From Bacteroidota bacterium (GTDB lineage: Bacteria > Bacteroidota > Bacteroidia > Chitinophagales > Saprospiraceae): a stretch of DNA of 64,000 nucleotides. Under the pieces are notes generated by a model. It was not told where the DNA came from, ran no database searches, and saw only the letters and a program-made list of their open reading frames with translations. Shown piece after piece: positions 3-60,219 of this stretch (position 1 is its first letter; every line of letters begins with the position of its first letter). The stretch covers positions 4,672-68,671 of the forward strand of contig JBCCDS010000029.1 of assembly GCA_039030655.1 (NCBI GenBank), read 5' to 3'. The position numbers were made by a program, and so were the translations under genes.

Positions 3-2492
3 ATTTACCAACAGCTTTTCCAGCAGTTACAACAAGACGATCAGCCAGAACTACTTCAGGCAGGGCGTGAGTTGCAGCGTACCGAATCGGTGCTAAAAGC
101 CCTCATCGGCCTCCCTACTGATGGTAGCCTGTGGGACCGACTCGATGCCCGAGGACGCTACCAAAACACGATTGCAGCCATTGTCAACCTTTTTGCAGCC
201 GAAAGCTTGCTCCAGCCGACCGTCATCGAGCTGGAAGACACCCACTGGCTAGATGACGACAGCCGCGTCCTACTACAAGAATTACTGCGGCGCCTGCCTA
301 ATCATGCCATCTTCCTGATTTGTTCTTCGCGCTACACCGATGCCGGAGAAGCGCCGCAATTGATCTCCGCCGAGCTGTTGGAAGAGTTTAAGATCACCCC
401 TTTGCGGATCGACCTCAAGTCTCTCAGTCAGGCCGCCATTCGGGAGTTTGCCGAACAGCAATTAGGTGGCCCCATTTCCAGTAATTGCTTCGACGTCTTA
501 CTGCGTGCCAGTAATCGCAACCCTTTCTACCTCGAACAACTGCTTGGTTATTTCCACGAAAACGAGTTACTGCTCAAAGACAAAGGCAAGTGGGAGTTGC
601 GTGATGGTGACATCAAACTCTCCGAAAGCATTAACTCCATCCTGACAGCTAGAATCGATCGTTTGTCCAATTTGGTCCGGGAAACGGTAAAGGCCGCTGC
701 AGTTATTGGACGGGAGTTTGATTTACCCGTACTTCGGGAAGTACTTCGCCAGCAAACCGGCGAGGATGTCGATCAGATTGTGATTCGCGATCAGGTCAAA
801 AAAGCAGAGCAAGGTCAGATCTGGAGTGCCGTCAACGAACTGCGTTATATCTTCCGGCACAGCCTGCTACGCGAGGCTGTCTATAGTATGCAGCTCAATA
901 CCCGGCTACAGGAATTGCACCGGCAAATTGCTCAGGTGATTGAGCGTCTCTACGCCGCCAATATCGAAACGCATTACGTCGACCTCGCCTTCCACTACGA
1001 GCAATCGGGCGATGAACAAAAGACCGTCGAGTACTTACAAAAAGCGGCCGATTATGCCCGCGCCAACTATCAAAACCAGCTGGCGCTGGATCTTTATGAC
1101 CGCCTCCTGGTCAAAACCGGGAAGGATACCCAGCAGATTGATACGCTGAAGATTTATCTGAGCCGCGGGCAGGTCCTGGAAATTATCGGCAACTGGGAAT
1201 CCGCCCTGGATGCCTACCAAAAAGCACAGCGTATTGCCAAACGCAGTCGCGATATCATCCTGCTCGGCAAGACCAATAACCGCCTTGGTCACCTCTTGAT
1301 GTTGCGCGGCCGCTACGAAGAAGCCATGCAATACCTCCAGGTAGCTGCGGGCCTTTTCGAATCTATCGACGACCCCTTGGGCATCGCCAAAGTTTACGGC
1401 AACCTGGGTTTACTTTATTTCCGCCGGGCACGCTACCAGCAAGCTCTCGATTACTTCCAACGCTCACTGGAAACTGGCTTCAGCCGAGTAGGTACTACCA
1501 GCAGCGCTGAGACGGTGGCCTATCTGGGTTTAACCTACATGAATCGCGGAGAATACCAGCAAGGTATTGAAGTCATAAAAGAACAGATCCCGCTTCACCA
1601 GGAAAACAATGATAGCATGGGCCTGGCCAATCTACACACCAACCTGGGGATCATTTACTTTGAAAGTGGAAACGACGAAGCTGCGGAAGTACACTACCAT
1701 AAAGGCCTACAACTGGCTGAAGAACTCGGCAACAAGCAGCTACAGGCGATCGGTACCGGCTGCCTTGGTGGCGTTTACGAACGCCAGGGAGAATACCCCA
1801 AAGCCATGGAACTCTTCCAACGCGACTTGCAGCTCTGCCAAGAGTTGGGCGACTGGCAAGGCATAGCTATCGCCGAGGGACTGATTGGTGAGCTTTACAG
1901 CATCATGGGGCAGTTTCAGGATGCCGAAAAACATCTAGGGCGCTACCTCAACATCAGCAAAGATCTAGGCTACCAGAAAGGTGTAGCGAAAGCCGTCAAT
2001 ACCCTTGGCGACATTTGCTTCTTTCAGGCTCGCTACGATGAGTCCATCGCCTACTACGACCAGTCTATTGAAATCGCGCGCAAGACCAATAATGTCCCCG
2101 TACTTGGCAACAGCCTAATGGAAAAGGGGATGGTACTGCTCGCTGCTAATCAGTTGGACGACTTAGCGGCTACCGAAGATGAAGCGCTGAAAGTTGCTCA
2201 GGAGTTGGGCAACCCAGACTTACTCTACTCTACCCAACTGCTTAGCGCTCGCGCTGAGGTAGCGCGTGGCAAGGTGTCTGAAGGGCTTAGCATGCTACAA
2301 GACTTACTTAGTTCTCTCAAATTACGACCAGAACAAGAAGCCGCCGCTTACTATGAGCGTTTCCGAATTAGCGATCAGGACATTGAAGCCCGCGACATGG
2401 CGCGTATGCTCTACGAACAACTACATCAGGAAACGCCGAAATACTTATACGAAAAACGCTTGGAGCTGCTGCGTCAGGCCGCTGATAAGTAA
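3..2492 (+). CDS. NTPase (STAND/AAA_16-like) C-terminal part fused to a long TPR-repeat array; probable signal-transduction regulator. The 5' end lies outside the window.
   Basis: The frame is open from base 3 to the TAA at 2490-2492, and the ORF track only starts at an internal TTG (72). The C-terminal two-thirds is repeated 34-40 aa TPR-like units (e.g. YGNLGLLYFRRARYQQALDYFQRSLE, HTNLGIIYFESGNDEAAEVHYHKGLQLAEE). The N-terminal part has the LELEDTHWLDDDS walker-B-like segment typical of AAA_16-TPR regulators. Confidence 0.6.
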   Translation: MYQQLFQQLQQDDQPELLQAGRELQRTESVLKALIGLPTDGSLWDRLDARGRYQNTIAAIVNLFAAESLLQPTVIELEDTHWLDDDSRVLLQELLRRLPNHAIFLICSSRYTDAGEAPQLISAELLEEFKITPLRIDLKSLSQAAIREFAEQQLGGPISSNCFDVLLRASNRNPFYLEQLLGYFHENELLLKDKGKWELRDGDIKLSESINSILTARIDRLSNLVRETVKAAAVIGREFDLPVLREVLRQQTGEDVDQIVIRDQVKKAEQGQIWSAVNELRYIFRHSLLREAVYSMQLNTRLQELHRQIAQVIERLYAANIETHYVDLAFHYEQSGDEQKTVEYLQKAADYARANYQNQLALDLYDRLLVKTGKDTQQIDTLKIYLSRGQVLEIIGNWESALDAYQKAQRIAKRSRDIILLGKTNNRLGHLLMLRGRYEEAMQYLQVAAGLFESIDDPLGIAKVYGNLGLLYFRRARYQQALDYFQRSLETGFSRVGTTSSAETVAYLGLTYMNRGEYQQGIEVIKEQIPLHQENNDSMGLANLHTNLGIIYFESGNDEAAEVHYHKGLQLAEELGNKQLQAIGTGCLGGVYERQGEYPKAMELFQRDLQLCQELGDWQGIAIAEGLIGELYSIMGQFQDAEKHLGRYLNISKDLGYQKGVAKAVNTLGDICFFQARYDESIAYYDQSIEIARKTNNVPVLGNSLMEKGMVLLAANQLDDLAATEDEALKVAQELGNPDLLYSTQLLSARAEVARGKVSEGLSMLQDLLSSLKLRPEQEAAAYYERFRISDQDIEARDMARMLYEQLHQETPKYLYEKRLELLRQAADK

Positions 2493-3854: not shown

Positions 3855-5051
3855 ATGACGCCAGCCGAGTATTGGGTACTGGGTTTAATGTCGGGCAGCT
3901 CCCTAGATGGGCTGGACATGGCGCTTTGTCGTTTTCAGCTAGCGGCGGCTTCCCAGCCTCAGATAGAGGAATGGGAAATTGTAGCGGCAACCACCCGAGA
4001 ATTCCCCAAGCCCTGGCAGGCGCGTCTGCGGATAGCTACCCATTTACCCGCGGCTGAGTTTTGGCGGCTGCACGTTGATTTAGGTCGCTACTTTGGCCAA
4101 CTGGCCAGACAATTCCTCGATCAACAATCGCAAAAGGCGCAGTTGGTCGGCTCTCACGGTCATACCATTTTTCATCGGCCTGATCAGCGGTACACCTGTC
4201 AGATTGGCGACGGAGCAGCCTTAGCTGCCGAACTAGGTCTCCCGGTAGTGGATCAACTGCGATCGAGTGATTTAGCTCAGGGTGGGCAGGGTGCCCCGAT
4301 TGCGCCTTTAGCAGACCGCTACCTTTTCCCCGAATACGGTGCCTTTCTCAATCTGGGGGGGATTGCCAATATCAGTATTCGTACTTCCGCAGGTCCTACC
4401 CCTCCGCTAGAGGCTGAGGACCTGCGGAAGTACAAAAACTCCAACCAATTCTTAGCGGGTGATGTATCTGGCGCCAATCAAATTTTGAATAAGCTAGCCG
4501 TCGCTGCCGGCTCATTACTTCCGTATGATGATGGTGGACGTTTAGCAGCCAGTGGCCATTTGCTGCCTGATTTATTAGAGACCTTAGTCGCCGTAGAATA
4601 TCATCAACAGACCTACCCGAAGTCCTTAGCCAATGCCTGGGTGCAAGAAACGCTCTGGCCAGTTGTCGAGCAAGCCGAAGGTACAGCCGTTGATAAGCTA
4701 CATACCTTTTGCCGTTTTCTGGCCCAACTCATTCATGATGACCTTCGCCGACTGGCCGAGCAAGCCAAGCTGCCCCCACAGCCCATCCAGGTAATGATCA
4801 GTGGAGGTGGCGGTCACAACCGATTTGTAGTGGAATGCCTCCGCAGCCTGGAGCAGGATGATCGCTACCCTTTGGGTTACGCACTTCCCGCCCTAAACAT
4901 CATCAATTTCAAAGAAGCAGCCCTCGTGGCCCTTTCCGCCTTGTGGCGAAAACTAGGCATACCCAATGCTTTTGCCAGCGTGACGGGTGCGAATCAAGAC
5001 ACGATCAACGGGGCATTATATCTACCAGCTCCCAGTTATAAAATCAGCTGA
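3855..5051 (+). CDS. anmK: Anhydro-N-acetylmuramic acid kinase
   Basis: 398 aa with the N-terminal GLMSGSSLDGLD signature, LNLGGIANIS and a C-terminal ISGGGGHN motif of the AnmK/ASKHA family. Carries an extra ~18-aa segment encoded by the hairpin at 4381-4433. Confidence 0.85.
   Translation: MTPAEYWVLGLMSGSSLDGLDMALCRFQLAAASQPQIEEWEIVAATTREFPKPWQARLRIATHLPAAEFWRLHVDLGRYFGQLARQFLDQQSQKAQLVGSHGHTIFHRPDQRYTCQIGDGAALAAELGLPVVDQLRSSDLAQGGQGAPIAPLADRYLFPEYGAFLNLGGIANISIRTSAGPTPPLEAEDLRKYKNSNQFLAGDVSGANQILNKLAVAAGSLLPYDDGGRLAASGHLLPDLLETLVAVEYHQQTYPKSLANAWVQETLWPVVEQAEGTAVDKLHTFCRFLAQLIHDDLRRLAEQAKLPPQPIQVMISGGGGHNRFVVECLRSLEQDDRYPLGYALPALNIINFKEAALVALSALWRKLGIPNAFASVTGANQDTINGALYLPAPSYKIS
4381..4433. 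repeat. 53-nt perfect hairpin element (16-nt arms GTACTTCCGCAGGTCC / GGACCTGCGGAAGTAC, 21-nt loop) embedded in the anmK reading frame
   Basis: The arms at 4381-4396 and 4418-4433 are exact reverse complements. The loop has an inner CCTC/GAGG pair (4401-4404 / 4410-4413). The arms carry the dispersed 12-mer. Confidence 0.85.
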
Positions 5052-8195: not shown

Positions 8196-8240
8196 GGAAA
8201 AATAAAGAGCTCCTGCTTCGGCGAAACCGAAGCAGGAGCT
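8196..8240 (-). terminator. Rho-independent terminator after the 2947-aa gene
   Basis: Perfect 14-bp stem AGCTCCTGCTTCGG (8208-8221) / CCGAAGCAGGAGCT (8227-8240), followed on the minus strand by CTTTATTTTT. Confidence 0.7.
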
Positions 8241-8248
8241 AAAAGGAT

Positions 8249-11200
8249 TTATTCGCGAAGTATGGTCAAAGAACCACGCTTCTGTAGTCGGTCACCTGAA
8301 GGATTAGCATAATCCAGGATGTAGTAGTAAGGCCCTTCCGGTAGCTCAGAGCCATCATTGTTGCGGCCTTCAAAGCAGTTGAGACCTCCGTCCTGGCTAC
8401 AATCGTAGTCGTTGACCTTATACACTAGCTGTCCCCAGCGATTATAGATCTCCAGGACATTATCGTTGAAGTCAGCCCCATCGGTACAGAATAGGATGAA
8501 GGCCTCGTTCAGTCCGTCACCATTAGGAGTAATCACATTGCGTTCCGACAGACAGGGGAAGCGGCGATCGCGTACGGTTACTTCCACAATGATGGTTTGA
8601 CAACGAGCGTCATCCGAGACTTCAATCGTGTATACACCCGGACAGAGTCCTTCGGCTGTAGCTCCCGTCTGGCCCATTAATTGCGGCCATTCGTAGGTGT
8701 AGAGTCCGTTACCGCCGTTTACCGTTACATCAATGGTGCCGTTACAACCGTCATCAGCATCCGTAGAGCTGACCGTGGCCGTCAGGGCTTCCGGCGCATT
8801 AACCGAGAAGGTACCTTGAGCTAAACAGCCATTAGCATCCATTACTTCTACAGAATAGCGATTCGGACGCAGGAATGGAATCGCCGGCGTAATTCGGCCA
8901 TCTTCCCAGAGGTAATCATAATCGCCAGCACCGCCAGTAGCGACTAGCTCGATACGTCCATCGCGGGCGTCTTCACAACTAGCATCGGTGATATTAGCAA
9001 CCAACTCAATCGGGCTTGGTGCGATCACTTCCAGCTGCTCGTCGACGATACAACCATCTTCACTGATAACACGAAGGTCATAGGTTCCTGCCGGAGCGTC
9101 GTTGACGATTGCATCCATACTGACCAATCCGCCATTGCGGCGCCATTCGTAGGTATAGTTTCCTGTACCGCTAACTTCAGCCACCAGTTGTGCATCGCTA
9201 AATCCAGCACAGCTGACGTCAAAGCCATTGTAATCGGTCGTTACATTAGCCGTCACAAAAAAGCCATTAGCTGAGCTTATAGTGTAAGTCCGCACCAGGC
9301 TGGCACCAGTGTTGTCCGTAATGACAACGGTGTAGTCTCCAGCAGCAACCTCAGTAAGGTCTTCCGTTTCGGCAATTACGTCGGTGCTGCCTGCTTCTGT
9401 CCAGGAGAAGGTGTAAGGACCAACACCGCCAGCAACCGTAAGGTCTACGGAGCCCGTGGCATCCCCCGGACAGGCAACCTCAGTGGTCTCTCCCTCTTCG
9501 GTCAGTTCTCCAACGTTGAGGTCACTCACTATTTGTTGACAACCGTTGGCGTCCGTAATGGTAGCGGCATAAGTACCAGCACATAGCTCGCTGACCTGGA
9601 GGCCATCCAAATCAGGCTGGTTCCAGCTAACCGTATACATGGGGCTTCCCCCTTCTACGTTCAGGGTAATACTACCCACGCAGGCAGGATCTTCAGTATC
9701 AGAAACAATGGTTGTTCCGGCCACCACGATGGCATCGGGAGCAGTGATCGTAACATTAGTCGTTGACTGGTTACCCTGACCGTCCGTAACGGTGATTACA
9801 AAATCACCCGCCGGCAAGGCAATGATAAGCGTATCTGAATCACTGCTCCCCATCAGATCTCCTGGTTGAGCAACGGCCGTGTAAGGCCCCGTACCATTTA
9901 TGATGATCAACTCAGCGCTACCCAAGGAATCCGCACAAAGTGATGGAGAAGCCGTCGTACCGTCAATTGACATCGGTTGGGAATCGATGGTGAAGCACTC
10001 TTCCGTGGCACAACTGGACTGATCGTTGATCGTAACGCAGTAAACGCCGGGAGCCAGGCCGTCGACATCTTCCGTCATCGCAAAGATGTCGGTTTCACCG
10101 TCGACCCGCCACTCAAAAGTATAAGGCGCAGCCCCTCCCGTAGGACTCAGGTCAATCGTTCCGTTATCTCCGTTGGTAGAAGAAGAAGTCGACCCATTAG
10201 CTAGGATGGGGGTAGGAGCGAAGAGGGTAAAGTTTGAATTGATCGATTCCGTACCGCAGGTAATTTCTACGGAGTAGGTACCGGGTTCTAAACCATCGAT
10301 ATCTTCCATCATGCCAATCACCATACCTTCTGAGTCGGTCCAGACGAAACTACATTCGCCATTACCTCCAGCTACCGTGATGTCGATTGAACCATTGTTT
10401 GCGCCTACACAACCACTATTGATCGTTTGATCGACCAACACTAATCCTTCTGACACCTGGAAACATTGTGCTCTTTCACACATGCGGCTATCCGTCACAG
10501 TTACACAGTAGGTACCCACCATCGTAAGACCAGCAATATCCTCCGTACCTGCGCTAAAGCCACCAGGGCCTGACCAGTTGTAGGTATACTCTGGAGTGCC
10601 TCCATTAACCAGCAGATCGATAGCTCCATCGGTTCCAGCACTGATATTAGTGATCGAACCACTAGCCACCAGAATTTCTGGTTCTTCTACTTCGATGTCG
10701 ATAAGCTCACGACTACAGCCGTTCCCATCCGTCACGGTAACGGAGTAGAAGCCTGCGGCCAAATTGGTCTGCTGCAGCATTCCATCGGGCAGGTTGCCGC
10801 TCCAGTCGATGATGTAAGGACCATTACCCCCTAGAGTAGCAATCGTAATGCTGCCGTTGGCTTCGCCATTACAGCGCACGTCCTGGACATCTACCGCATT
10901 GACCGAGAAGGGCGGAGGTGCATTTACGGTGTAAGTGGCAGAGGCCGTTTCGTTGGTATTCGGGTTGGTAACTATTACGGTGTAGACCCCAGGCGGTAGG
11001 TCCATGACTACGGGGCCATTGCCCACGTTGGGCGACCATTCGTATTCCAGGTTAGCACCACCGGTAATCGTTAGGCTGATGCTACCGTCCGTATCACCTT
11101 CACAGCTGGTGCCTTGCACATCCGCGTCGACAATCATCGGCGCGTCCGAGCAATTGATACCTCCGTTGATCAGCGTAGCTGGAATCTGCCCGTCAGGGCC

Positions 11201-14200
11201 GAAGAATTCAACGGCAATTTGCTGATTGGTAAAGCTGACCGGCCCACATTCTTCCGACTGAATTTCGAAACAAAGTTCAAAGACCTGCGTCCCGTCCGCC
11301 ACTGTTTTTTCCAGACCATCTGGGGAAGGCCAGGCGACCCTTACATCATCATCTCCTGGATTGGTAATCAGGAAGGGGAATAGCCCAGGAATACAATCAA
11401 ATACCGGTCCGCCATCCAGCGGACAATTGGGTACGTTGGCATTCTGAAAAGTGATTACCGCCGGATCGAAAGTGATACCAAACTGGAAGCTGGATACTGC
11501 TTCAAAATTGAAGACCGTAACCGGCACACAAACGGTTTCTCCCACCATACCTTCGGCGGTACCGATGAGGAAGGTCAAACCACTACCTGGTGGCGGGAAA
11601 CCGCTATTAACGATTCCGCCCATCGCAACTACGCCTACATTTTGACCATTCGCATTTCCAGCAATGATAACCGTAGGTACGGCAGTAGGCGTCACCATGG
11701 TCTGAGCAGCTTCTAGTACTTCGAAGCAAATCGAAACCATCACTGAGCCATCCGCGAGGGTTTCACCTGCGGGAGTACCACTCTCCCACACAAAGGACAA
11801 GGCCCCGGGAGAGGGATTAGTGATATTCGCATTCGACAAGCCCGTCAGGTTGAAGTTGGTCGCGTTGTTGTAGCTCAGCACCGTGCTATTGTAGCTCACG
11901 GAAAATTCGAGCTCGGTGAGTTCATCAAAGTTCTCTACCGTAATGTCCAAACAGACTTCTGAGCCAACACCACCACTACCATCTCCAATATCGAAGATGA
12001 GGTTATCCGGCTGGTCGTTACAAGGAATACCATTATTGACCACTCCACCACTTACGTTGACGGTGACGTCGTCATTAGCGGCATTATTGGCCTCAATCAC
12101 TTGAGGCATATTGGTGATAGTAACCGGGGTAGTACAAGCTTCGATCACCGTATAACAGATGTCCAAAATGGTTTCCCCATTGGGCAAGGTCACACTACCA
12201 CTGGCCGCCGACCAGTTGACGATAATCTGCCCTGGAGTGGCGCCACTAGCAGTCAAGCCCGTTAGCGCACCATTAGGCGTCGCCACAGCAAACTGCAGCT
12301 TGGTTGGATCGTAATTGATGCTGAACTGGAAGTCGGTGATGGTATTAAAGTCAAAAGCATTGATATCGAGGCAAACCTGCTCGCCGACCATGCCCGTACC
12401 GTTACTAACCGTTAAGGTAATCTCATTGGGTGGACAAGCAGGACAGTCAGGACCACCACAGTCGATACCCGTCTCTTGGCCATTCATAATACCGTCTTCA
12501 CAGTCACCGGGGCATTCTGGGCAATCGGGACCGCCACAGTCCACACCCGTCTCCTGACCGTTTTGGATACCATCCTCACAGGTCGGCGGGCAAGCGGGGC
12601 AATCGGGACCGCCACAGTCGACGCCCGTCTCCTGGCCATTCTGGATGCCGTCGTCACAAGTCGGGCCACCACCGCAGCCGGCATTTACCGTGCCTGGGAA
12701 GACATCGATGGCCAGACTCTGCCCCAGGTTATTGGAGCCGGTAATGGAAATCGGGTCACCCGTTATTTCTACGGTAGTCGTACAATCATCCTCGATCGTG
12801 AAGCAGAAAGAAGCAATTACGGTTCCATCTGGAAAAGTAAGCCCCATAAACTCCGGGCTCTGATCTACCCAGACCACCCGCAGTGCATCACTGGGTGAAT
12901 TGGTCACCTGCATCGGGCTGAAGGCTGCCAGGAAGTCAGGATTTGCCGTAAAGCTGTTGTAGTTCAGGAAGGCTTCATCGAAATTGATGCTGAACTGGAA
13001 GGCCGTAACGTCGGTAAAGTTGGTCGTAACGACGTCTAGGCAAATTTCCGTGCCTACTCCACCTTCGCCGTTGAGGACGCGGAAGGTCAGGTTGTCCGAA
13101 CAGGGCGCACAGTTAGGACCACCACAGTCGATCTGCGTTTCGCCATTATTTAGGATACCATCATCACAAGTCTCGGTGGGCGGACAAGCAGCACAATCAG
13201 GGCCACCGCAGTCAACCCCCGTTTCTTGACCATTCTGAATACCATCCTCGCAGGTCGGAGGATTGATGCAAGGATCACAATCAGGACCGCCACAATCGAC
13301 ACCAGTTTCGTTGCCATTCTGGACACCATCATTACAAGTCGGACAGGGTGCACAATTGGGACCGCCACAATCGACATCCGTCTCGCCGTTGTTCTGGATG
13401 CCGTCATTACAGCTTTCAGTCGTACCGCCATTGACGATACCGCCACTGACGAATACATCCTGGCTCTGGCCCAGGTTATTGGAGGCTGTAATCGAAATGG
13501 GCGTACCCGTGATGTCCACCGGCGTTTGGTCGTCATCAAGCACCGTAAAGCAAAGCGTTGCAATCACCGTTCCGTCGGGGAAGCTGAGACCCATGAATTC
13601 CGGGCTCTGGTCTACCCAGACGATACGTAGAGCGTTGCTTGGCGAGTTGGTCACCTGCATCGGGCTGAAGGCCGCCAGGAAATCGGGATTGGCCGTGAAG
13701 TTATCGTAAGAAAGGAAGGCCTCGTCAAAGTTAACACTGAACTGGAAGGCCGTAATGTCGGTAAAGTTGGCCGTAGTAATATCCAGACATACCTGGCTAC
13801 CGACGCCACCGTTACCATCTTGTAGATCGAAAGTCAATAAGCTGTTACAGGGGGCACAGTTGGGGCCACCACAGTCGACTTCAATCTCACCGTTGTTCAG
13901 GATACCATCATCGCAGGTTTCCATGACGTTACAGGGCATACAATCAGGGCCACCACAGTCTATACCGGTTTCGTTACCGTTCTGGATGCCATCAGTACAG
14001 TTCGGTGGGTCGATACAAGGATCACAATTAGGACCGCCACAGTCCACGCCCGTTTCACCATTATTCTGGATACCGTCGTTACAGGTCTCGGTAGTCGAAC
14101 CGTTGACGATACCGCCATCGACAAATACATCCTGGCTCTGGCCCAGATTATTAGAGGCTGTGATAGAAATCGGCGAGCCCGTAATATCGACCGTTGTTTG

Positions 14201-17177: not shown

Positions 17178-17948
17178 CTAGCCGCCGGTAAAGACGACTT
17201 TTTGACTCAGTTGTAGCTCGTCGCCGGTCACCTCAATTAAGTAGGTGCCCGCGGCGGGCATATCGCTAGCTTCCAAAGATACTTGGTTCACACCAGCATC
17301 CAATTCCAGCGATCGTTGTTGCACCAAACGCCCTTGCAGATCATAGATACGCAACTGGGCCGTTTGTTCTTTTATCATTTCAATACGCAGCTGGGTCGCC
17401 ACGGAGAAGGGGTTGGGAAGGGCGGTCATTTGTACTTCCGCAGGTGTTCCCGTCAGGTCTGGCATTACGCGGATAGTGGCACCAGTAAACTGGGCAGGCA
17501 TTTCCTGACCTACACCGTTGCCCACTAAACAGCGGGTGGGTTGCTCGCTGAAATTGAGATGAACTTCCTCTCCTACCCGAGCCAATACTTTAAAGCGTAG
17601 ACTATAGAGTATAGTCCCGTCTTCCAGGTCATAGCCTTGCAGGGCCGGATCCATAAAAGTATAAGCCAACCGCCCTGCATCGGTCTGACGCAGATTGAAA
17701 TTAGCCGTAGCGGTAGCACCTAATGCTAAGTTCTTTACTTCCTGAAAACTTAATTGCTCTGGATCCCAATTGAGGGAAAGTTGAGCAGCTGCGACTGCAC
17801 GAAAGTCTTCTACAGACAAGTCCAGCTCCACGAACTGATCGGGAGCGGCTTCTACATCAGGAATGAAGAAGGTAGTAAGCTGTGCCTGGAGCTGGCTAGC
17901 CAATAGCAGCGGCAGGACTCCAAGGAAGCGGAGTAGCATTCTGCTCAT
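17178..17948 (-). CDS. Small secreted single-cohesin-domain protein with T9SS type-A C-terminal sorting domain
   Basis: Signal peptide MSRMLLRFLGVLPLLLASQLQAQ (ATG at 17948; the ORF track starts at a GTG at 17954). Cohesin-like signature VAAAQLSLNWDPEQLSF. C-terminal LPNPFSVATQLRIEM...IYDLQGRLV matches the Por secretion tail. Confidence 0.8.
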   Translation of the reverse strand: MSRMLLRFLGVLPLLLASQLQAQLTTFFIPDVEAAPDQFVELDLSVEDFRAVAAAQLSLNWDPEQLSFQEVKNLALGATATANFNLRQTDAGRLAYTFMDPALQGYDLEDGTILYSLRFKVLARVGEEVHLNFSEQPTRCLVGNGVGQEMPAQFTGATIRVMPDLTGTPAEVQMTALPNPFSVATQLRIEMIKEQTAQLRIYDLQGRLVQQRSLELDAGVNQVSLEASDMPAAGTYLIEVTGDELQLSQKVVFTGG

Positions 17949-23128: not shown

Positions 23129-23672
23129 ATGAGATTACGATGTACGTGAGATAAATTGCAAAAATTCATTTTTCGTGCTGAACTGATTTTTTGCGTTGGT
23201 GAATTCAGCCAGCACTTTACGACGAAACCGCTACTGCTAGGCAGTATACCCGGTGAAAAGACAGACGAAGGGGAGGGAAACAAGGGCAGCTCAATTCACC
23301 ATAGTCTTTGCCGACGTAGGCAAATGCGTGGTGTAAATGAGTGCTTGGGTATGTTTTAAGTCGCCTATCAAAACCAGGTATAGCTACTTTCACAAGTTGC
23401 TATTCTAGGCAAATATAAGCGGTAGCAGTTGAATTCCCGGACTTTTAACATACAATTCTGATGCTTGCCACTACAGTTTACCTCTAGCCACTAATAAAAT
23501 GGCCGATGCTGTGCAGGGCGTTTACACCTGCGGAAGTACCTATACAAATAGATATAAGTAAATCACCATCTGGAGTTTGGCGACCCAAGAATAGCTCATT
23601 TCAGTTAGACAATAGTTCTCAAAAATCAGCCGTGGATGCTTAACTAATTACCTCCTTTTTTGTTAATTAAGC

Positions 23673-24120: not shown

Positions 24121-24639
24121 TTGGACACAAAAACCATCTACCTCGGTGCTGGCTGCTACTGGAGCAAGGAGTATCACTTAAGCCGTCTGGTGGGTGTGCT
24201 GGGCACCGAGGTAGGTTTTGCCGGCGGGCAGCTCGAAAACCCCAGCTATCTGGAAGTCTGTGGCAAAAAGACTGGACATGCAGAAGTGGTTGCCGTGCGC
24301 TATCAGCCTAAGCTGTTGAGTTTTTACTGCCTTTTACAGCACTTCTTCCAGCTACATCCCGCTCAGGTCGATCGACGGAAAAATGGTGGCCAGTACCGGT
24401 CGGCTATCTTCTTCCCCAACATAGCTAACAAATTGGAAATCAGTACCATAAATTGGATGTTCGGTTTTTTGACTTCCGCAGGTCTATCCCCTACTACCGA
24501 AGTGAAAGAATCCGTTTCGTTTTTTCGGGCTATGGATCGGCATCAAGGCTACTGCGAGCGCCTAAGCAGGCCACCGAAAAACGGGCTTGGTTTTCCGCTC
24601 TACTCCTGGCCAGCAGCGCCCAGCGGCCTTATTTTATAA
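24121..24639 (+). CDS. msrA: Peptide-methionine (S)-S-oxide reductase
   Basis: 172 aa with active-site GAGCYW, then GHAEVV and GGQYRSAIFF motifs. Only a TTG start (24121) is available upstream of the catalytic Cys, because there is an in-frame stop at 24106. Confidence 0.8.
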   Translation: MDTKTIYLGAGCYWSKEYHLSRLVGVLGTEVGFAGGQLENPSYLEVCGKKTGHAEVVAVRYQPKLLSFYCLLQHFFQLHPAQVDRRKNGGQYRSAIFFPNIANKLEISTINWMFGFLTSAGLSPTTEVKESVSFFRAMDRHQGYCERLSRPPKNGLGFPLYSWPAAPSGLIL

Positions 24640-26201: not shown

Positions 26202-26229
26202 ACTGATAAACGATGGTGTCCGCACACAA

Positions 26230-26270
26230 GAAGCCCCCTCTCGCAAAATGTGAGAAGGGGCTTCTTTTTA
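26230..26270. terminator. Bidirectional terminator hairpin
   Basis: GAAGCCCC (26230-26237) pairs with GGGGCTTC (26257-26264), followed by TTTTTA. Lies between convergent genes. Confidence 0.6.
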
Positions 26271-28777: not shown

Positions 28778-28850
28778 GGTGCGGTAGCTCAGTTGGTAGA
28801 GCAATGGACTGAAAATCCATGTGTCGGCGGTTCGATTCCGCCCCACACCA
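28778..28850 (+). tRNA. tRNA-Phe (anticodon GAA)
   Basis: 73-nt cloverleaf: acceptor GGTGCGG/CCACACC (one C-A mismatch), D arm GCTCAGTTGGTAGAGC, anticodon stem ATGGA/TCCAT with loop CTGAAAA (GAA at 28811-28813), T arm GGCGG TTCGATT CCGCC. CCA is not encoded. Confidence 0.9.
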
Positions 28851-28868
28851 CCCAAACGAAAGAATAGT

Positions 28869-34170: not shown

Positions 34171-34902
34171 ATGCTCATCATTCCCGCAATCGATATAATT
34201 GACGGCCAGTGTGTGCGACTAACCCAGGGTGACTATGCACAAAAAAAAGTCTACAATGAAGACCCCGTGGAAGTCGCCAAAGCCTTTGAGGCAGCCGGAT
34301 TGACCCAGCTACATGTGGTTGATCTAGACGGCGCTCGCGGAGGAGGTATCGTCAACTACAAAGTACTAGAGCGGATTGCCAGTAATACCCAGCTGCATAT
34401 CGATTGGGGAGGAGGCATGAAAACGGACGACGATCTGCGCATTGCCTTTGAAAGTGGAGCGCAGCAAGTAACCGGCGGTACCATTGCCGTAAAGCAGCCC
34501 GAAGTCTTTCTGAATTGGCTAGAACGATACGGGGTCGAACGGATCATCCTCGGGGCAGACGTCAGAGGTCAATATATTGCAGTAAGCGGATGGGAAGAAT
34601 CCAGTGAGCGGGAGCTATTCGAGTTTTTGGCGGACTACGTAGCTCGCGGTGTTCGCTACACCATCTGTACGGACGTAGCTAAAGATGGTCTCCTGCAGGG
34701 TACTGCTCGAGAGCTGTACGCCCAAATCAGAGAAGCGCAGCCAGCACTAAAATTAATTGCTAGTGGAGGGGTCACTGATGTGGCGGATCTGGAAGACCTG
34801 CGGAAGTCCAAATGCTACGGAGCGATCGTGGGAAAAGCAATCTACGAGGGGAGAATAAGCCTGTCCACACTAGCTGATTTTTCAAGTACACCAAACCACT
34901 AG
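34171..34902 (+). CDS. hisA: Phosphoribosylformimino-AICAR-P isomerase
   Basis: 243 aa with [25 protein letters not shown] and [11 protein letters not shown] motifs. Confidence 0.9.
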
Positions 34903-41109: not shown

Positions 41110-43137
41110 ATGGAGCAAGATGTAATTCAATTGTTGCCCGACGCAATTGCCAATCAAATTGCGGCGGGAGAGGTGATTCAGCGGCCGGCCAGTGTGGTCA
41201 AGGAGCTGCTGGAAAATGCTATCGACGCCGGTGGACAAAACCTACAACTCATCCTCAAGGATGGTGGCAAAACTCTAATTCAGATTATCGACGACGGCTG
41301 CGGTATGTCTGAAACCGACGCGCGTATGTCGCTCGAAAGGCACGCAACCAGTAAATTGCGCACAGCGGATGACTTGTTCCGCCTCCGCACCATGGGTTTT
41401 CGCGGTGAAGCTTTACCCAGTATTGCCTCCGTAGCTCACCTAGAGATCAGAACCCGGCGGCATAACGACGAATTAGGCACACTGATCCAGGTAGAAGGAA
41501 GTACGCTTAAAAAGCAAGAAGCCTGCCAGTGCCCTCCCGGCACCAGTATGTCCGTCAAACATCTCTTTTTCAACGTACCGGCTCGGAGGAATTTCCTAAA
41601 AAGCGACTCCGTAGAATACAAGCACATCCGGGAAGAGTTTGTGCGTATCACACTGGCCCATCCGGAAATTTCCTTTTCGCTCTACAACAATGACCAGCTG
41701 GAGTTACAGCTGCCAGCCACCAAGCTACGGCGGCGGGTACTCGCCCTCTTTCCCAAGCGATTGGAGAGTATGCTGGTCCCTATCGAAGAAGAGACCGACA
41801 TCCTCTCGATCCGTGGTTTTGTTGGTAAACCCAGTGCCGCCAAGAAGTCGCGGGGTGAGCAATACTTCTTCGTCAATGATCGCTTCATCCGCTCCAGCTA
41901 CCTCAATCACGCCGTAGTATCGGCCTACGATGAGTTGCTGGCCGAAAAAGCGTATCCATTTTACATCATCTTTCTGGAGGTCGAGCCCGACCGGATTGAC
42001 ATCAACGTGCACCCCACCAAACAGGAAATCAAGTTTGAAGACGAGCGCCTGATCTACAACTTCCTCAAGGCTACCATCCGTTATGGCCTGGGGCGAGCCA
42101 GCATTACACCTACACTAGACTTTGAATCCGATAACGTTTTCCACCCTTCCAAGATAGGCTCTTTACGCTCTGAAGGAAGTCAGCTGGAACCTAGTCAACC
42201 TTTACCCTCAAAAATCAACGCGGGAGCAGCTGCTACACCCACAGAAAACCCCCAGCAAGTTTCGACCCCGCCAGCTCACCCATTCAGCGGTAGCGACAGT
42301 AGGCAGGACGACGCGCGAGGATCAAAACCTCCGCGGGAGGTTTCGACCGGCGGAAGTACACCAACTACCCCACGAACCGGCAGTAGTGAAGGCATCCGGC
42401 AGGCTAATAATTTGCGTAACTGGGAGCGCCTCTACGACGTACTGGGGCAAGAAGCAGAAACGCCTGCGGCCGACAGTAGCTTTAGTTTTGGCGACGAGGA
42501 AGAAAGTGAAATTTTACCCAGTCGATTCTCCAGCGACGAGCCCGAAGATGGACCCAAGCGAAAGGCAGGAGAGAAGCCACCCTATCAGCTACATCTCCGC
42601 TACATCGTGAGCCCGTTAAAAAGCGGTTTACTGTTAATCGACCAGCAGGCGGCCCACGAGCGCATTCTCTACGAGCAGTTCTTGCGGCAACTGCGCGAGC
42701 AAAACAGCCCTTCGCAGCAGAGTCTTTTCCCCCAAACGCTCGAACTATCCGTGGCGGAAGCCGGTTTATTGACCGAAATTCTACCCGATCTAAAAGAGCT
42801 GGGTTTTGACCTGGAACCATTCGGAGGACAATCCTTCATCATCCGCGGTGTGCCAGCTGAGCTGGCGGGAAAAACCAACGAATTAGAGCTGGTGCAGCAA
42901 CTCCTTGCCCGTTACGCAGAAAACCTGGATCCTGAGCTGGATGCCCACGAAAAAGTGGCTCGCTCGCTGGCCCGCTCCGCGGCTACCCGGCCTGGTCAAG
43001 AACTGAGTCAGGCGGAGATGTACAGCCTGATTTCCCAGCTTTTTGCCTGTGAGCAGCACCAGTTTAACCCCGGTGGTAAGCGACGTTGTTTCATTACTTT
43101 CGAACTGGATGAGTTAGAACGCCGTTTTCAACTGTAA
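41110..43137 (+). CDS. mutL: DNA mismatch repair protein MutL
   Basis: 675 aa with a GHKL ATPase N-terminus (IAAGEVIQRPASVVKELLENAIDAG, DDGCGM, GFRGEAL), a Pro/Ser-rich linker, and a C-terminal dimerisation domain. Confidence 0.92.
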   Translation: MEQDVIQLLPDAIANQIAAGEVIQRPASVVKELLENAIDAGGQNLQLILKDGGKTLIQIIDDGCGMSETDARMSLERHATSKLRTADDLFRLRTMGFRGEALPSIASVAHLEIRTRRHNDELGTLIQVEGSTLKKQEACQCPPGTSMSVKHLFFNVPARRNFLKSDSVEYKHIREEFVRITLAHPEISFSLYNNDQLELQLPATKLRRRVLALFPKRLESMLVPIEEETDILSIRGFVGKPSAAKKSRGEQYFFVNDRFIRSSYLNHAVVSAYDELLAEKAYPFYIIFLEVEPDRIDINVHPTKQEIKFEDERLIYNFLKATIRYGLGRASITPTLDFESDNVFHPSKIGSLRSEGSQLEPSQPLPSKINAGAAATPTENPQQVSTPPAHPFSGSDSRQDDARGSKPPREVSTGGSTPTTPRTGSSEGIRQANNLRNWERLYDVLGQEAETPAADSSFSFGDEEESEILPSRFSSDEPEDGPKRKAGEKPPYQLHLRYIVSPLKSGLLLIDQQAAHERILYEQFLRQLREQNSPSQQSLFPQTLELSVAEAGLLTEILPDLKELGFDLEPFGGQSFIIRGVPAELAGKTNELELVQQLLARYAENLDPELDAHEKVARSLARSAATRPGQELSQAEMYSLISQLFACEQHQFNPGGKRRCFITFELDELERRFQL

Positions 43138-45698: not shown

Positions 45699-46199
45699 AT
45701 GACTTTCAAGGAAATTCAAGAGCTCATTAAGCTCATCACCAAGACCGAGCTTGCCGAGTTCAAGATTAAGGATGGCGATTTCCAGCTGCACATTCGTGGC
45801 AAGGAAGCCGCTCCTACCGAAACCACCCAAGTAATCAGTGTGCCCCAGGTAGCTCCGGCAGCTTTTGCCCCAGCTCCAGCAGCAGCCCCGGCTCCAACGC
45901 CAGCAGCAGCGGCTCCGGCAGCAGCCCCAGCTGAACCAGCTCCGGCAAGTGATGCCAATTTACTGGAGATTCGTTCACCAATGATTGGTACTTTCTATCG
46001 TTCTGCCAGCCCAGACAAGCCACCTTACGCTAAGGTGGGAGACAGTGTCAACAAAGGTGACGTAGTCTGTATCGTAGAAGCGATGAAGCTCTTCAACGAT
46101 ATTGAGTCAGAAGTAAGCGGTAAGATCGTTAAGGTATTGGTCGAAGACGCCCAGCCGATTGAATACGATCAGGTACTGTTTTTAGTGGACCCTTCTTAA
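45699..46199 (+). CDS. accB: Acetyl-CoA carboxylase biotin carboxyl carrier protein
   Basis: Start trimmed to the ATG at 45699 ([13 protein letters not shown]). Ala/Pro-rich linker and the biotinylation motif [10 protein letters not shown]. Confidence 0.9.
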
Positions 46200-48344: not shown

Positions 48345-49085
48345 TTATAGGCGAGCTTTCATGCTTTCGTAGAGCATGATCCCGGCGGCTACCGAAACAT
48401 TAAAGCTGTTCATGGTGCCGACCTGCGGAAGTCTAAAACGCCAATTTGCAGCCCGCGCAACCCCAGTACTGATACCTTCTCCTTCCGCGCCTAGCACCAA
48501 ACAGAGCGGAGCCTGTAGATCTAGTTCGGCCAGGTCCTGTTCCGCCTGGAGATCGCTGGCAGCTACTTGGAGACCACATTCTTGTAAGTACTCGATGGTA
48601 TTGATGAGGCTCTTTTCCCGGCAGACGGGTAAGCGAGCCAGAGCGCCAGCCGAGCTTTTCACCGCATCGGGCGTCAAACCAGCGCTATTCTTTTGGCCAA
48701 TAATGATAGCTTGGGCACCACATATTTCCGCCGAGCGGGCAATGGCGCCCAGGTTGCGCACATCCGTCACCCCGTCTAATAACAACAATAAGGGGGTTTG
48801 GCCCTGCTCATAGATAAAGGGCAGGATATCTGTAATCTTCTGGTAGGGAGCCGCCGCCATTTGAGCGGCTACCCCCTGATGGTTGCCTTTAACCATCCGC
48901 TGGAGTTTCTCCTTAGGCACCATAGTCAGTGGGACTTCACGATCACGACATAGGTGGCGCAACTCTTTTTCGAGCTCTCCGCGGGTGCCTTGCAGAAGAT
49001 AGACCTTATCAACCGGTTGCCCGGACTGTAAGGCTTCAATAACCGGATGACGGCCGTAGATTAATTGCTGGCGACTGGACTTCAT
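48345..49085 (-). CDS. rlmB: 23S rRNA (guanosine-2'-O)-methyltransferase RlmB (SpoU/TrmH family)
   Basis: LIYGRHPVIEAL N-terminal L30e-like domain and SPOUT motifs (LLLLDGVTDVRNLGAIARSAE, LVLGAEGEGIS, NSFNVSVAAGIMLYE). The start is placed at the ATG at 49085, which overlaps the upstream stop as ATGA. The ORF track allows 49112. Confidence 0.85.
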   Translation of the reverse strand: MKSSRQQLIYGRHPVIEALQSGQPVDKVYLLQGTRGELEKELRHLCRDREVPLTMVPKEKLQRMVKGNHQGVAAQMAAAPYQKITDILPFIYEQGQTPLLLLLDGVTDVRNLGAIARSAEICGAQAIIIGQKNSAGLTPDAVKSSAGALARLPVCREKSLINTIEYLQECGLQVAASDLQAEQDLAELDLQAPLCLVLGAEGEGISTGVARAANWRFRLPQVGTMNSFNVSVAAGIMLYESMKARL

Positions 49086-53960: not shown

Positions 53961-54146
53961 GTACTTCCGCCCGGTACGGGCCCGTCTGGGCAGGTGTATT
54001 GGGGAACCGAGACCATCCTAGCAGCGCCAGGTATTGCGAGAAACGAGAGTCGAGATGGATGAAATGCACAGGTCTCGACTCTCGACTCTAGGAACCCTGA
54101 TTTAGTCGGGATGGTCTTGATTCTGCTTTTACACCTGCGGAAGTAC
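53961..54146. repeat. 186-bp MITE-like structured element bounded by inverted copies of the 18-mer GTACTTCCGCAGGTGTAA
   Basis: The right end TTACACCTGCGGAAGTAC (54129-54146) is intact. The left end is GTACTTCCGC (53961-53970) plus AGGTGTA (53992-53998), split by a 21-nt insert. Nested perfect stems are GAGAGTCGAGA / TCTCGACTCTC (54045-54055 / 54073-54083) and AGACCATCC / GGATGGTCT (54010-54018 / 54109-54117). Confidence 0.6.
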
Positions 54147-57281: not shown

Positions 57282-58277
57282 CTAAGACAAAGACGACCAA
57301 ACAGCCTGTATCTCAGCCACAATGGTCACGTGATTCAGGTCGCGCATACAGCGAAAATGTCCCTTGGGACAGCTGGCGTGGCCGATCTTAGAGCAAGGCC
57401 GGCAGGAGAGCCCTTCGATCTCCTGCCGCCTTGCTCTTTCTGTTGCTTCCTGGCCGGGCAGATAGGGGTACATCCCAAAGTCCGGCACGGTGTTGCCCCA
57501 GACGGAAATGATCGGCTTATGAAAAGCCGCGGCGATGTGCATCAGTCCGGTATCGTGGGTAAGCACTACCCTAGCCTGCTGCACCAAGGAAGCCGATTGG
57601 CCCAACTTGAAGCTGCCGCAGCTATTATAAACCTGAGGGCCCGCTGCAGTTGCCAGCCGTTCACCAATTTCTTTTTCTCCGGGTCCTCCCAATAAAACAA
57701 GGGGGTAGGGGCAAGCCTGACAGATGGCGAGTAGCTGATCTTCGGGCAAGCGTTTAGTCGCATGAGCGGCACCGATTACCATGGCGACATATTCCTGTGG
57801 CAAGCCAAATTTGCCCAGCGCAACTACATCTTCCGGTCCCAAAAAATAATCCAGCCCTCCACCGTCATTTTGGATGCCCAATGGCTTCGCTGCCGCCAGA
57901 TAACGATCGACAATATGTACTGCTGGCAAGCGATTCAACTTGAAGTTGGTCAGCAACCACTTCTGCCAGTTAAGCTTATTGAAGCGGTAGGTTTTGCACT
58001 TCCGCAGGTGTAAGTCCAGCTGCCGAGTTCGCAGATTATTGTGCAGATCAATGAGCGTATCGAATCCTTCAGCTTTTAGCTCATCGGTAATCTCCGTCAC
58101 TTCTTTTTCGATGGTCCACAACTTAGTCAGATAGGGATTGTGTTTCAAGACCCCTGCGTAGGCGCGTTTGGTGAGAAAGTGCACCTCCGCTCCCAGCTGC
58201 TGCTGTACGGCTCTGATCACCGGTGTGGTCAGTACAACATCCCCAATGGAGGAAAAGCGGACGATGAGGACTTTCAT
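57282..58277 (-). CDS. Glycosyltransferase family 9 (heptosyltransferase-like)
   Basis: 331 aa with MKVLIVRFSSIGDVVLTTPVIRAV at the N-terminus and GGPGEKE...THDTGLMHIAAAF blocks typical of GT9. Confidence 0.8.
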   Translation of the reverse strand: MKVLIVRFSSIGDVVLTTPVIRAVQQQLGAEVHFLTKRAYAGVLKHNPYLTKLWTIEKEVTEITDELKAEGFDTLIDLHNNLRTRQLDLHLRKCKTYRFNKLNWQKWLLTNFKLNRLPAVHIVDRYLAAAKPLGIQNDGGGLDYFLGPEDVVALGKFGLPQEYVAMVIGAAHATKRLPEDQLLAICQACPYPLVLLGGPGEKEIGERLATAAGPQVYNSCGSFKLGQSASLVQQARVVLTHDTGLMHIAAAFHKPIISVWGNTVPDFGMYPYLPGQEATERARRQEIEGLSCRPCSKIGHASCPKGHFRCMRDLNHVTIVAEIQAVWSSLS

Positions 58278-58461: not shown

Positions 58462-60219
58462 TTAAGGGACCACCCGCCCCACCGGATACAGATTATGCGT
58501 AGGCTCATAAAATTCCGACCGACGATAAATGAAGAGGAGCTGCCCGTAAGCATCGGCGGCCAGATCGGGATCAGCGGCCTTCGCTGTAGCCAATTCGGCC
58601 GCTAGATCAGGATTACTGGCCAACAGTTCTTCGGCAATGTCTTCGAAGACGTAGGGCGAGAAGTATTCCTTCTGCTGTAGGATCGCATCGAAGAAATTCC
58701 AGGCAAAGTAGCTATCGGGAGCCTGTGGTTCCAAAGTTTCGACGATGTAGCGCACGCCCGGTTGATCGGTGTAGACCAGATAATCTCCGGCTCGGTAGGT
58801 GACTTCGCGGGTAACGGGACGAAGCTGGACATTATAGTGTAGGTAGTGGCCCTCGTAGGGACTATTACGCGACTCGTAGCTATCGATATAGTACTGTTCT
58901 ACTTCCAGCGTGGTGTCACTGCTTAACTCTTGCAAGACGATACCATTGTTTTGGAGACGCTCAATGACTTCACCCCAGGCGAAGGGGATACAGTACGCAA
59001 ATGGGCGATCAACGGTAGTTGTGGTACTATAATAGTCATATAGCGGCACGGGTTTGACGTAGGGGGCCTCTCGATCGTAGTAGAGGCGATCCTGGCCAGT
59101 AATCGCACTTGGTTTTTGTTTGGCTTCGTAGCCTTTAAATTGGAGCGTGTCGGACCTGCGGGAGTCCAATTCCCAATTCAAAGCCAAGCTATCCGCAGCA
59201 CGGTCTTGAGCGATTGCTTCAGCTCGGGCCGACTGGATTTTCTCCCGATCGCGAGCCACCAAGTCTACGGCCGACTGCATAAACTGATAGACCGACTCCG
59301 AGCGATCGCCAAAGGGCTTGAACATATGGGTCTCGGGCATGAAACCGATGCTGTGATGCAGGGCCGCGTAGCCCGAAGAGTAGCGAGGTAGATCGAGGAA
59401 GCCGGCGATCCCTTCATCGGGGGTAGATCGTACATAAACATAGGGGGTCAAATCCCAGCCACGTACGGGTAGATTCTGATAAAAATGCGGCAACATTTCT
59501 TCTTTCAGGTAGCTGGCCAATGGAGCGCTGAGTTTGTTATGTTGGGTGGCAATCAGCGTAAGCGTGTACTGATAATCAGCCCCGTTGGAGGTATGGTTGT
59601 CGATAAAAACCTCAGGCTGCCAGTCGGTAAATAAGCGGTTGAAGCTACGGGCATTGCGGGAGTCACACTTGATAAAGTCCCGGTTGAGGTCGAGGTTGCG
59701 TGCGTTGCCCCGAAAGCCGTGCTCCAGGGGACCGTTTTGATTAGCGCGGCTATCGCGACCGCGATTCAGGACGCCTCCGATGCTATACATGGGAATAAAT
59801 ACCAACACTACTTCATCAGGAAAAGGAAAATCTTCCGGCAGTTGCAGGTAGTCACGCACCAGTCGCATGGTCGCATCTACTCCACAGGGCTCGCCGGCAT
59901 GAATGGCATTATTGACGAAGAGAATAATTTTATCTGCTGCCCGAGCCTCTTCTGCCGTATTGATGCCCTCATTGGAAAGCGTGCCGTAGAGTAAGGGATA
60001 GCCACTATCGGTCATACCGGCCTCCTGCAGACTGAAGCGACTGGGATAAGCCTCGGCCAATTGCTGATAGAAAGCTACAGACTGAGCGTGGGAAGCGGTC
60101 GTGTTATGTGCTTCGTCTTGCTCGTAGGGAGTGAGCAGGAATTCCAGGTCAGGATCAGTAGCGGGTTGACAGGTGGTGAGGAAGAGAATAAGGAGGAGGG
60201 GGTAGATGGGTAGTTTCAT
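58462..60219 (-). CDS. M14 family zinc carboxypeptidase
   Basis: 585 aa with a signal peptide, NNAIHAGEPCG (HxxE zinc ligands) and NRDFIK/NHTSNGADY blocks of the M14 fold, plus a long C-terminal extension. Confidence 0.75.
   Translation of the reverse strand: MKLPIYPLLLILFLTTCQPATDPDLEFLLTPYEQDEAHNTTASHAQSVAFYQQLAEAYPSRFSLQEAGMTDSGYPLLYGTLSNEGINTAEEARAADKIILFVNNAIHAGEPCGVDATMRLVRDYLQLPEDFPFPDEVVLVFIPMYSIGGVLNRGRDSRANQNGPLEHGFRGNARNLDLNRDFIKCDSRNARSFNRLFTDWQPEVFIDNHTSNGADYQYTLTLIATQHNKLSAPLASYLKEEMLPHFYQNLPVRGWDLTPYVYVRSTPDEGIAGFLDLPRYSSGYAALHHSIGFMPETHMFKPFGDRSESVYQFMQSAVDLVARDREKIQSARAEAIAQDRAADSLALNWELDSRRSDTLQFKGYEAKQKPSAITGQDRLYYDREAPYVKPVPLYDYYSTTTTVDRPFAYCIPFAWGEVIERLQNNGIVLQELSSDTTLEVEQYYIDSYESRNSPYEGHYLHYNVQLRPVTREVTYRAGDYLVYTDQPGVRYIVETLEPQAPDSYFAWNFFDAILQQKEYFSPYVFEDIAEELLASNPDLAAELATAKAADPDLAADAYGQLLFIYRRSEFYEPTHNLYPVGRVVP

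Follow-up and report, generated by a model that had tools for sequence, protein, structure and literature searches.

How does a perfect DNA hairpin come to lie within the reading frame of an enzyme gene? The question is raised by anmK, the gene of an anhydro-N-acetylmuramic acid kinase, in a 64,000-nucleotide stretch of contig JBCCDS010000029.1 (GenBank assembly GCA_039030655.1). This stretch was analysed at its full length and is called the window below. In a preliminary description of the window, the hairpin was regarded as an insertion similar to the Rickettsia palindromic elements (RPE). It was found that both hairpin arms are copies of a dispersed, lineage-specific and over-represented 12-mer, ACTTCCGCAGGT, referred to here as the word. 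The window organism belongs to the Lewinellaceae. The hairpin is best read as an inverted pair of this word, of which the left copy is old and the right copy was generated by local inverted duplication; a probability of roughly 0.7 is assigned to this anatomy and origin.

Hairpin and insertion in anmK

The features of the locus are as follows (window coordinates).

3855..5051, plus strand: anmK, 398 aa, host of the hairpin (open reading frame (ORF), PF03702, named homologues, AlphaFold2 (AF2) model)
4381..4396, plus strand: left arm, with the word copy ACTTCCGCAGGT at 4383-4394 encoding T-S-A-G; ancestral word site
4397..4417, plus strand: 21-nt loop, within which CCTC/GAGG (4401-4404, 4410-4413) pair as a mini-stem of 4 bp; inserted segment (RNA and DNA folds)
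4418..4433, minus strand: right arm, second word copy with its core at 4420-4431; the sense strand reads E-D-L-R-K-Y; inserted segment
4374..4440, no strand: extended imperfect palindrome, 31-nt arms at 4374-4404 and 4410-4440; probable footprint of an inverted duplication
4395..4445, plus strand: in-frame insertion of 17 codons, PTPPLEAEDLRKYKNSN, with approximate boundaries (protein alignment, codon view, alignment to structure 3cqy)

Direct comparison confirmed the reported inverted repeat. GTACTTCCGCAGGTCC (4381-4396) and GGACCTGCGGAAGTAC (4418-4433), 16 nt each, are exact reverse complements around a 21-nt loop, and the hairpin (4381-4433) is translated in frame within the 398-aa ORF as RTSAGPTPPLEAEDLRKY. 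The pair is the longest and strongest inverted repeat within 120 nt in the window. With equal base frequencies, the calculated chance expectation for a perfect inverted pair of 16 nt within 120 nt is about 0.002 per 64 kb. Folding of the mRNA region, which the preliminary description had called for, gave -42.3 kcal/mol (z = -7.9), and 0/200 shuffles were equally stable; the DNA fold gave -23.3 kcal/mol (z = -8.4). Since a Logan assembly made independently, L012 (SRR22824269), contains the identical sequence, the hairpin is not an assembly artefact. It was not called in the terminator scan, and it has no T-tract. An Rfam search of the window yielded no family at the hairpin, and only the tRNA-Phe at 28778-28852 was matched.

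About 17 extra residues had been claimed to lie, in a lineage-specific manner, in a loop between the GGIAN strand and AGD(V)SGAN. Both the extra residues and their location were borne out. In an alignment of 25 Lewinellaceae AnmK sequences, the 17-residue segment is present in two, namely the window protein and P0001 (93% identical; from ERR4592245). In the other 23 the strand after GGIAN runs nearly straight into AGD, and a conserved loop of equal length is found in none of them. Aligned with the Shewanella AnmK structure 3cqy, the insertion position corresponds to a gap of 16 residues. The AF2 model has a predicted local distance difference test (pLDDT) score of 88 and matches the crystal structures 3cqy, 3qbx and 8cp9 (E ~1e-28), and AnmK crystal structures were also matched at the sequence level. 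In the model, strands 170-176 and 199-206 enclose the tip of a beta-hairpin; this tip is formed by the insert and is modelled with low confidence (pLDDT 52-63 over residues 181-200).

The insertion can also be measured against L054, a related locus whose AnmK is 58% identical; relative to it, about 14 codons are added (4404-4445). Some orthologues without the insert read (K/R)-T-S-A-G or similar before the gap, and the T-S-A-G of the left arm falls in a loop of variable sequence among orthologues. P0001 differs at 3/17 insert residues, including a K to E change in DLRKY, so the insert peptide evolves faster than the remainder of AnmK.

The age of the left arm could be judged from L054. Its anmK reads AAG ACT TCC GCA GGT, an exact ACTTCCGCAGGT at the orthologous K-T-S-A-G, and has no insert. 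Because the same 12-mer occupies orthologous codons there, the left arm predates the insertion, and the loop and the right arm are therefore new DNA. Nucleotide identity between the two anmK genes is 60%, and no more than 9/1088 12-nt windows are conserved.

A dispersed word in the window and in related bacteria

The word occurs in the window in 11 exact and 4 one-mismatch copies, 6 on the plus and 9 on the minus strand. Apart from the two in the hairpin arms, the copies are the following.

1679..1690, minus strand: one-mismatch copy ACTTCCGCAGCT, TPR / guanylate cyclase gene
11765..11776, minus strand: one-mismatch copy ACTCCCGCAGGT, SprB-like gene
17434..17445, plus strand: exact copy, antisense, cohesin / Por_Secre_tail gene
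23526..23537, minus strand: exact copy, intergenic; kept in L051 despite diverged flanks
24472..24483, plus strand: exact copy, msrA (sense); kept in L051
30416..30427, plus strand: exact copy, hisD (sense, LPQV); one mismatch at the orthologous L051 site
34796..34807, minus strand: exact copy, hisA (antisense, DLRK); kept in L051
40490..40501, plus strand: exact copy, intergenic; L051 has its copy in this intergenic region too, displaced by indels
42346..42357, minus strand: one-mismatch copy ACTTCCGCCGGT, mutL linker
48421..48432, minus strand: exact copy, SpoU methyltransferase gene (sense)
54133..54144, minus strand: exact copy, intergenic between hflX and an M12 protease gene
57998..58009, plus strand: exact copy, glycosyltransferase-9 gene (antisense)
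59154..59165, minus strand: one-mismatch copy ACTCCCGCAGGT, M14-like peptidase gene

Over-representation was examined on about 90 kb in all (window, L051 and L054). The 11 exact copies in 64 kb compare with about 0.008 expected (arithmetic, equal base frequencies), and the commonest 12-mer of the window is ACCTGCGGAAGT, with 11 copies. When the 16-mer was searched with up to 3 mismatches, 14 matches were obtained in 64 kb against 0.34 expected, and 0/100 shuffles reached 14. The copies are read in sense and antisense, in all six frames, and they encode TSAG, LPQV, DSRR, DLRK, PAEV and other peptides. With both strands, all frames and such varied peptides in use, the pattern is one of DNA and not of a preferred peptide. 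Twelve of the 15 copies are intragenic, in conserved housekeeping genes (hisD, hisA, msrA, mutL, spoU and others), and three are intergenic; 13/14 loci are singlets. Overall, the density is about 1 per 4-6 kb and about 80% of the copies lie in coding DNA. The clear terminator-like hairpins of the window (8208-8240, 26228-26266) do not contain the word.

Twenty-three sites from the window, L051 and L054 gave an extended consensus of approximately WTTTGK-ACTTCCGCAGGT-STAACCC, an asymmetric footprint of about 25 nt. The flanks are biased, with T at -5 in 18/23 sites and G at -2 in 17/23.

The conservation of word sites was evaluated with L051, a metagenomic contig syntenic with 19.6-41.3 kb of the window (HisD 82% identical, DNA 75% identical over 21 kb). 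Five window sites fall in this region. Three are exact in L051, one has one mismatch, and one is displaced by indels within the same intergenic region. One of the three exactly kept sites is itself intergenic, and its flanks have diverged with indels. Only 5.4% of the 12-nt windows are fully conserved between the two sequences, and the probability of at least 3/5 kept sites is 0.0014. Together with the anmK site of L054, the orthologous L051 sites show that word sites have been maintained over substantial divergence. In total, L051 holds 4 copies and L054 holds 2, and the word is also present in contig L017.

Several sets of loci do not contain the word. No copy was found in 176 kb of anmK loci from distant Bacteroidota, used as negative controls (AnmK 31-38% identical), and none in loci L018, L055 (SD302), L019/L020, L053, L056, L057 and L058. 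Two other Lewinellaceae have words of their own. In Lewinella sp. 4G2 (GCA_001625015.2), the 18-mer GCACCYGCGKCAGCGCCC occurs at 14 sites in 42.4 kb of two independent loci (L056 and L058), seven on each strand, in coding and intergenic DNA. It has ACCTGCGG.AG and an A-rich 3' flank in common with the window word, and the matrix score was reached in 0/1000 column permutations. Lewinellaceae bacterium SD302 (GCA_002591745.1) carries tttTGGCTAGCAAAGTAGCAATG at 11 sites in 37 kb of two independent loci.

SD302 word sites: L018 2915, 9396, 9526, 13830; L055 2250, 2491, 9032, 10291, 13065, 17601, 17754

No significant similarity was detected between the SD302 word and the window word (P = 0.18). 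In SD302, intergenic copies are often arranged divergently in pairs, 120-240 nt from each other. These pairs were considered as miniature inverted-repeat transposable elements (MITEs), and this was rejected since the inner sequences are unrelated. In L019, L053 and L057 no clear word was detected within 16-21 kb; the L019 candidates GCAGGAGCAA and AAAGCAGCCAA were too weak to call.

Several repeats were observed along with the word. Its 14 loci in the window (1679-59165) are spaced more evenly than random (coefficient of variation (CV) 0.48, P = 0.003; post hoc test), with six gaps of 5.7-6.1 kb; by eye, even spacing is not evident in the 4G2 and SD302 site lists. Nested inverted repeats (54004-54018/54109-54123 and 54034-54055/54073-54094) lie beside the word at 54133-54144, in the divergent intergenic region between hflX and the M12 protease gene. 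The word copy in the mutL linker is directly followed by a perfect small hairpin, AAACCTCC-CGCG-GGAGGTTT (42346-42385). The only tandem repeats of the window are 72-84-nt units in the 2947-aa SprB-like gene (12435-14670) and a short Ala/Pro-rich repeat in the AccB linker (45867-45947). Outside the window, dense intergenic clusters of the short repeats TAGTCGGGTAG and AGTACGGTAG, in both orientations, were seen in two Lewinellaceae (L058:4788-4915 and L057:14179-14280). The HisD homologue at L053:10001-11692 reaches 563 aa because about 408 nt within the gene are duplicated in tandem (copies at 10149 and 10557), and a (GAACTTT)n heptanucleotide tandem array is found at L002:5379-5430, in a distant Bacteroidota metagenome-assembled genome.

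Origin of the second copy and possible role of the word

The palindrome extends beyond the perfect hairpin. Its 31-nt arms, separated by 5 nt, are complementary at 26/31 positions (84%), and because of this extension a local inverted duplication is the likeliest origin. All five mismatches lie outside the 16-nt perfect core; the probability that they would all miss it at random is C(15,5)/C(31,5) = 0.018. Their placement is consistent with constraint on both word copies, to which coding constraint contributes too. Outside the extended word consensus, 6/6 positions match (count from the arm alignment and the site profile). Snap-back or a template switch would thus have duplicated about 31 nt around the left copy, inverted and in place. 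The insertion would have persisted as a flexible tip of a surface beta-hairpin that AnmK tolerates, and the two word cores would have stayed perfect through DNA-level constraint on the word itself.

Some observations weigh against this account. The inverted-duplication origin rests on one locus, and part of the flank complementarity is expected, since both arms fit the extended word consensus. Furthermore, the K to E change in P0001 implies at least one substitution in the right-arm word, which means that this copy is not strictly constrained. With GAG as the E codon, the right arm of P0001 would carry ACTCCCGCAGGT, which is also the one-mismatch variant of the sites at 11765 and 59154. The sequence covered amounts to about 64 kb of the source genome and about 28 kb of word-sharing relatives, from which genome-wide behaviour is extrapolated.

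As to what the word does, it is very probably some DNA-level recognition site under constraint. A polar word of the Chi/KOPS type was rejected. Such words have 5-8 nt and a strong strand skew; here the core has 12 nt and the strands are used 6 plus/9 minus in the window and 7/7 in 4G2. A promoter element or peptide-level selection was rejected on length, absent strand skew and the use of all six frames.

The likeliest single function, though held at less than even odds, would be that of a tag recognised by a sequence-specific DNA-binding or DNA-uptake protein; with its lineage dialects, the word would then be comparable to the DNA uptake sequences (DUS) and uptake signal sequences (USS) of other bacteria. 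It is conceivable, though doubtful, that Lewinellaceae use lineage-specific words as self tags for DNA uptake or recombination and that these evolve as dialects, with ACTTCCGCAGGT here, a related 18-mer in 4G2 and an unrelated word in SD302. Several features speak against the uptake analogy. The density is about 4-6 times below that of DUS/USS, about 80% of the copies are coding, and singles dominate. In DUS/USS genomes, about half of the copies reside in terminators (bioRxiv 10.1101/2025.10.24.684340). The anmK hairpin, lacking a T-tract, was not called as one. Among those window ORFs that were scanned, no competence gene turned up, which says little.

Alternatively, the word could be bound by an abundant chromosomal protein or nuclease with sequence specificity, such as a nucleoid-organising factor or an Ssn-like single-strand nuclease, or it could be driven by biased repair or gene conversion. 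This explanation, too, is rather unlikely. The asymmetric recognition footprint of about 25 nt would fit a bound protein, as would the retention of the word at orthologous sites and the even spacing in the window (CV 0.48, P = 0.003, post hoc), although such spacing is not obvious in the 4G2 or SD302 site lists. We know of no nucleoid-protein site that combines such length, copy number and coding location. Ssn and NTS are a documented case of lineage-specific repeats paired with a cognate nuclease (PMC11893778), but the Ssn-related repeats form hairpins of about 30 nt and are grouped around genes, whereas the word forms no hairpin and lies mostly within genes.

A family of lineage-specific dispersed words in Lewinellaceae is without a description in the literature searched. 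A search by word sequence returned only rRNA and primer matches, and no paper connecting uptake sequences with Bacteroidota was found. If the words are uptake tags, they would be the first uptake-enhancing sequences beyond two proteobacterial families and would add another phylum to the known range; in that case, anmK would provide an example of how a tag, by inverted duplication, can lengthen a protein. Lewinella sp. 4G2 would then offer a culturable test case, and the correlation of dialects with genes a handle on the recognising protein. A chromosomal protein or nuclease of a new kind that recognises the word would likewise be a novelty. As regards the hairpin, it would represent a non-transposition route by which a short DNA-level signal lengthens a protein: the surroundings of a constrained word are duplicated in inverted orientation where a loop can tolerate it.

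Other explanations and known systems

Three further explanations concern the hairpin rather than the function of the word. The hairpin may have been selected for an RNA or DNA role in anmK, as a ribosome pause, in mRNA processing or stability in the cytochrome c-anmK-epimerase operon, or as a cruciform, with an incidental match to the word. The structure is indeed very stable and is retained in the 93% identical relative. However, the two arms agree exactly with the genome-wide word, down to the G/T preferences of its flanks, the K to E change in the relative alters the stem, and neither a terminator signature nor an Rfam match was obtained. Such a role is regarded as improbable.

Slightly less probable still is the transposition into anmK, in frame, of a self-contained 53-nt palindromic mobile element, of the RPE or MITE type. 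This is where the preliminary description has to be amended. Its RPE-like insertion stands in so far as the insert is in frame, lineage-specific and in a loop, and it is palindromic with an arm sequence that is repeated in the genome. The mobile 53-nt palindromic element does not stand: the left arm is older than the insert, as seen in L054, and the unit is unique. Neither the loop nor the 53-nt unit has a second copy in the window, L012, L017, L051 or L054, where the 12-16-mer of the arm alone recurs. The remaining word copies are mostly single 12-mers in conserved codons of housekeeping genes, and no target-site duplication is visible in the hairpin sequence. A metagenome scan for inverted word pairs gave one contig, L017, with ttttGGACTTCCGCAGGT-12 nt-ACCTGCGGAAGTCC located 10 nt past a stop codon, at the contig end; its loop is different from and unrelated to that of the anmK hairpin.

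An inverted arrangement was also noticed in four phage contigs, L013-L016 (GC 42%). They have an identical ACTTCCGCAGGT-27 nt-ACCTGCGGAAGT with identical flanks (L013:1115-1165), located in a LysM-like coding region (YVTSAGDTWDSIAYKTCGSE), and no other word copies. This pair is probably a coincidence. A viral scan with the 16-mer ACTTCCGCAGGTGTAA gave 30 single matches, roughly the chance level by a rough estimate, and no contig was enriched.

Least probable of all is that the word is a repetitive extragenic palindromic (REP) sequence and the hairpin a doublet of the REPIN type mobilised by a REP-associated tyrosine transposase (RAYT, Y1): lineage-specific families and hairpin-forming inverted doublets are known and a Y1_Tnp gene exists in the related 4G2, but 12/15 copies are inside genes, 13/14 loci are singlets, the 12-mer lacks true palindromic symmetry, the Y1_Tnp gene of 4G2 is bordered by a different, GC-rich hairpin repeat, GGCCCTTCGGGACGGG, and not by the dispersed word, and no Y1_Tnp was found among the window ORFs scanned or the precomputed L012/L051 matches. 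Bertels and Rainey are said to have described in 2011 that REP families are lineage-specific and that REPINs are inverted doublets forming hairpins. In 4G2, the Y1_Tnp (IS200/RAYT-like) gene lies at L058:1366-1869 among the GGCCCTTCGGGACGGG hairpin repeats (L058:1100-2000), and in L056:16600-17700 the same hairpin forms an array, repeated about every 206 nt. The arrangement resembles a REP/RAYT system and is distinct from the dispersed word.

With the hairpin thus read as an inverted pair of the word, it can be compared with known systems. The Rickettsia palindromic elements were reportedly described by Ogata et al. in 2000. As in RPE, a palindrome is translated in frame in a housekeeping gene, at a surface position, and is present or absent among orthologues. 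RPE differ in having 100-150 nt and in being repeated over their whole length. In anmK, recurrence is limited to the 12-16-nt arms, one half of the palindrome is ancestral gene sequence and the unit is unique. HIP1 (GCGATCGC) of cyanobacteria is a palindromic octamer of much higher density. Like HIP1, the word is over-represented in coding and non-coding DNA, independent of frame and kept at orthologous sites; it differs as an asymmetric 12-mer with asymmetric flanks. The lineage-specific short repeats and the hairpin-forming inverted doublet resemble REP/REPIN sequences, but REP sequences are extragenic imperfect palindromes, mostly doublets, that flank a RAYT gene, whereas the word is mostly intragenic and single.

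NTS/dRS3 and Ssn-related motifs are lineage-specific, occur in hundreds of copies, are recognised by cognate sequence-specific proteins, the GIY-YIG single-strand nucleases, and are associated with natural transformation (PMC11893778). The Ssn-related motifs span about 30 nt, form hairpins with a palindromic core, and are concentrated around genes and on either side of ssnA (PMC11893778). The word is likewise a lineage-specific repeat. It differs from Ssn-related motifs in being a 12-mer without self-complementarity, dispersed inside genes.

The closest analogues are the DUS of Neisseriaceae (GCCGTCTGAA, 12-mer dialects) and the USS of Pasteurellaceae (AAGTGCGGT). In a 2025 survey, uptake-enhancing sequences were found in these two families, both of the Proteobacteria (bioRxiv 10.1101/2025.10.24.684340). 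The word differs from them in its host phylum, Bacteroidota, and in its density (about 1 per 4-6 kb against about 1 per kb). It is also about 80% coding with few copies in terminators, and the SD302 word is unrelated and not a dialect (P = 0.18). On the other hand, it has in common with DUS/USS a short non-palindromic core (9-12 nt) with weaker flanks and strong over-representation, and neither strand, frame nor the boundary between genes and intergenic DNA restricts its occurrence. Like DUS/USS, it is retained at orthologous sites. The words of the window clade and 4G2, with ACCTGCGG.AG in common, may be related dialects, and inverted pairs form hairpins, one of them just past a stop codon (L017).

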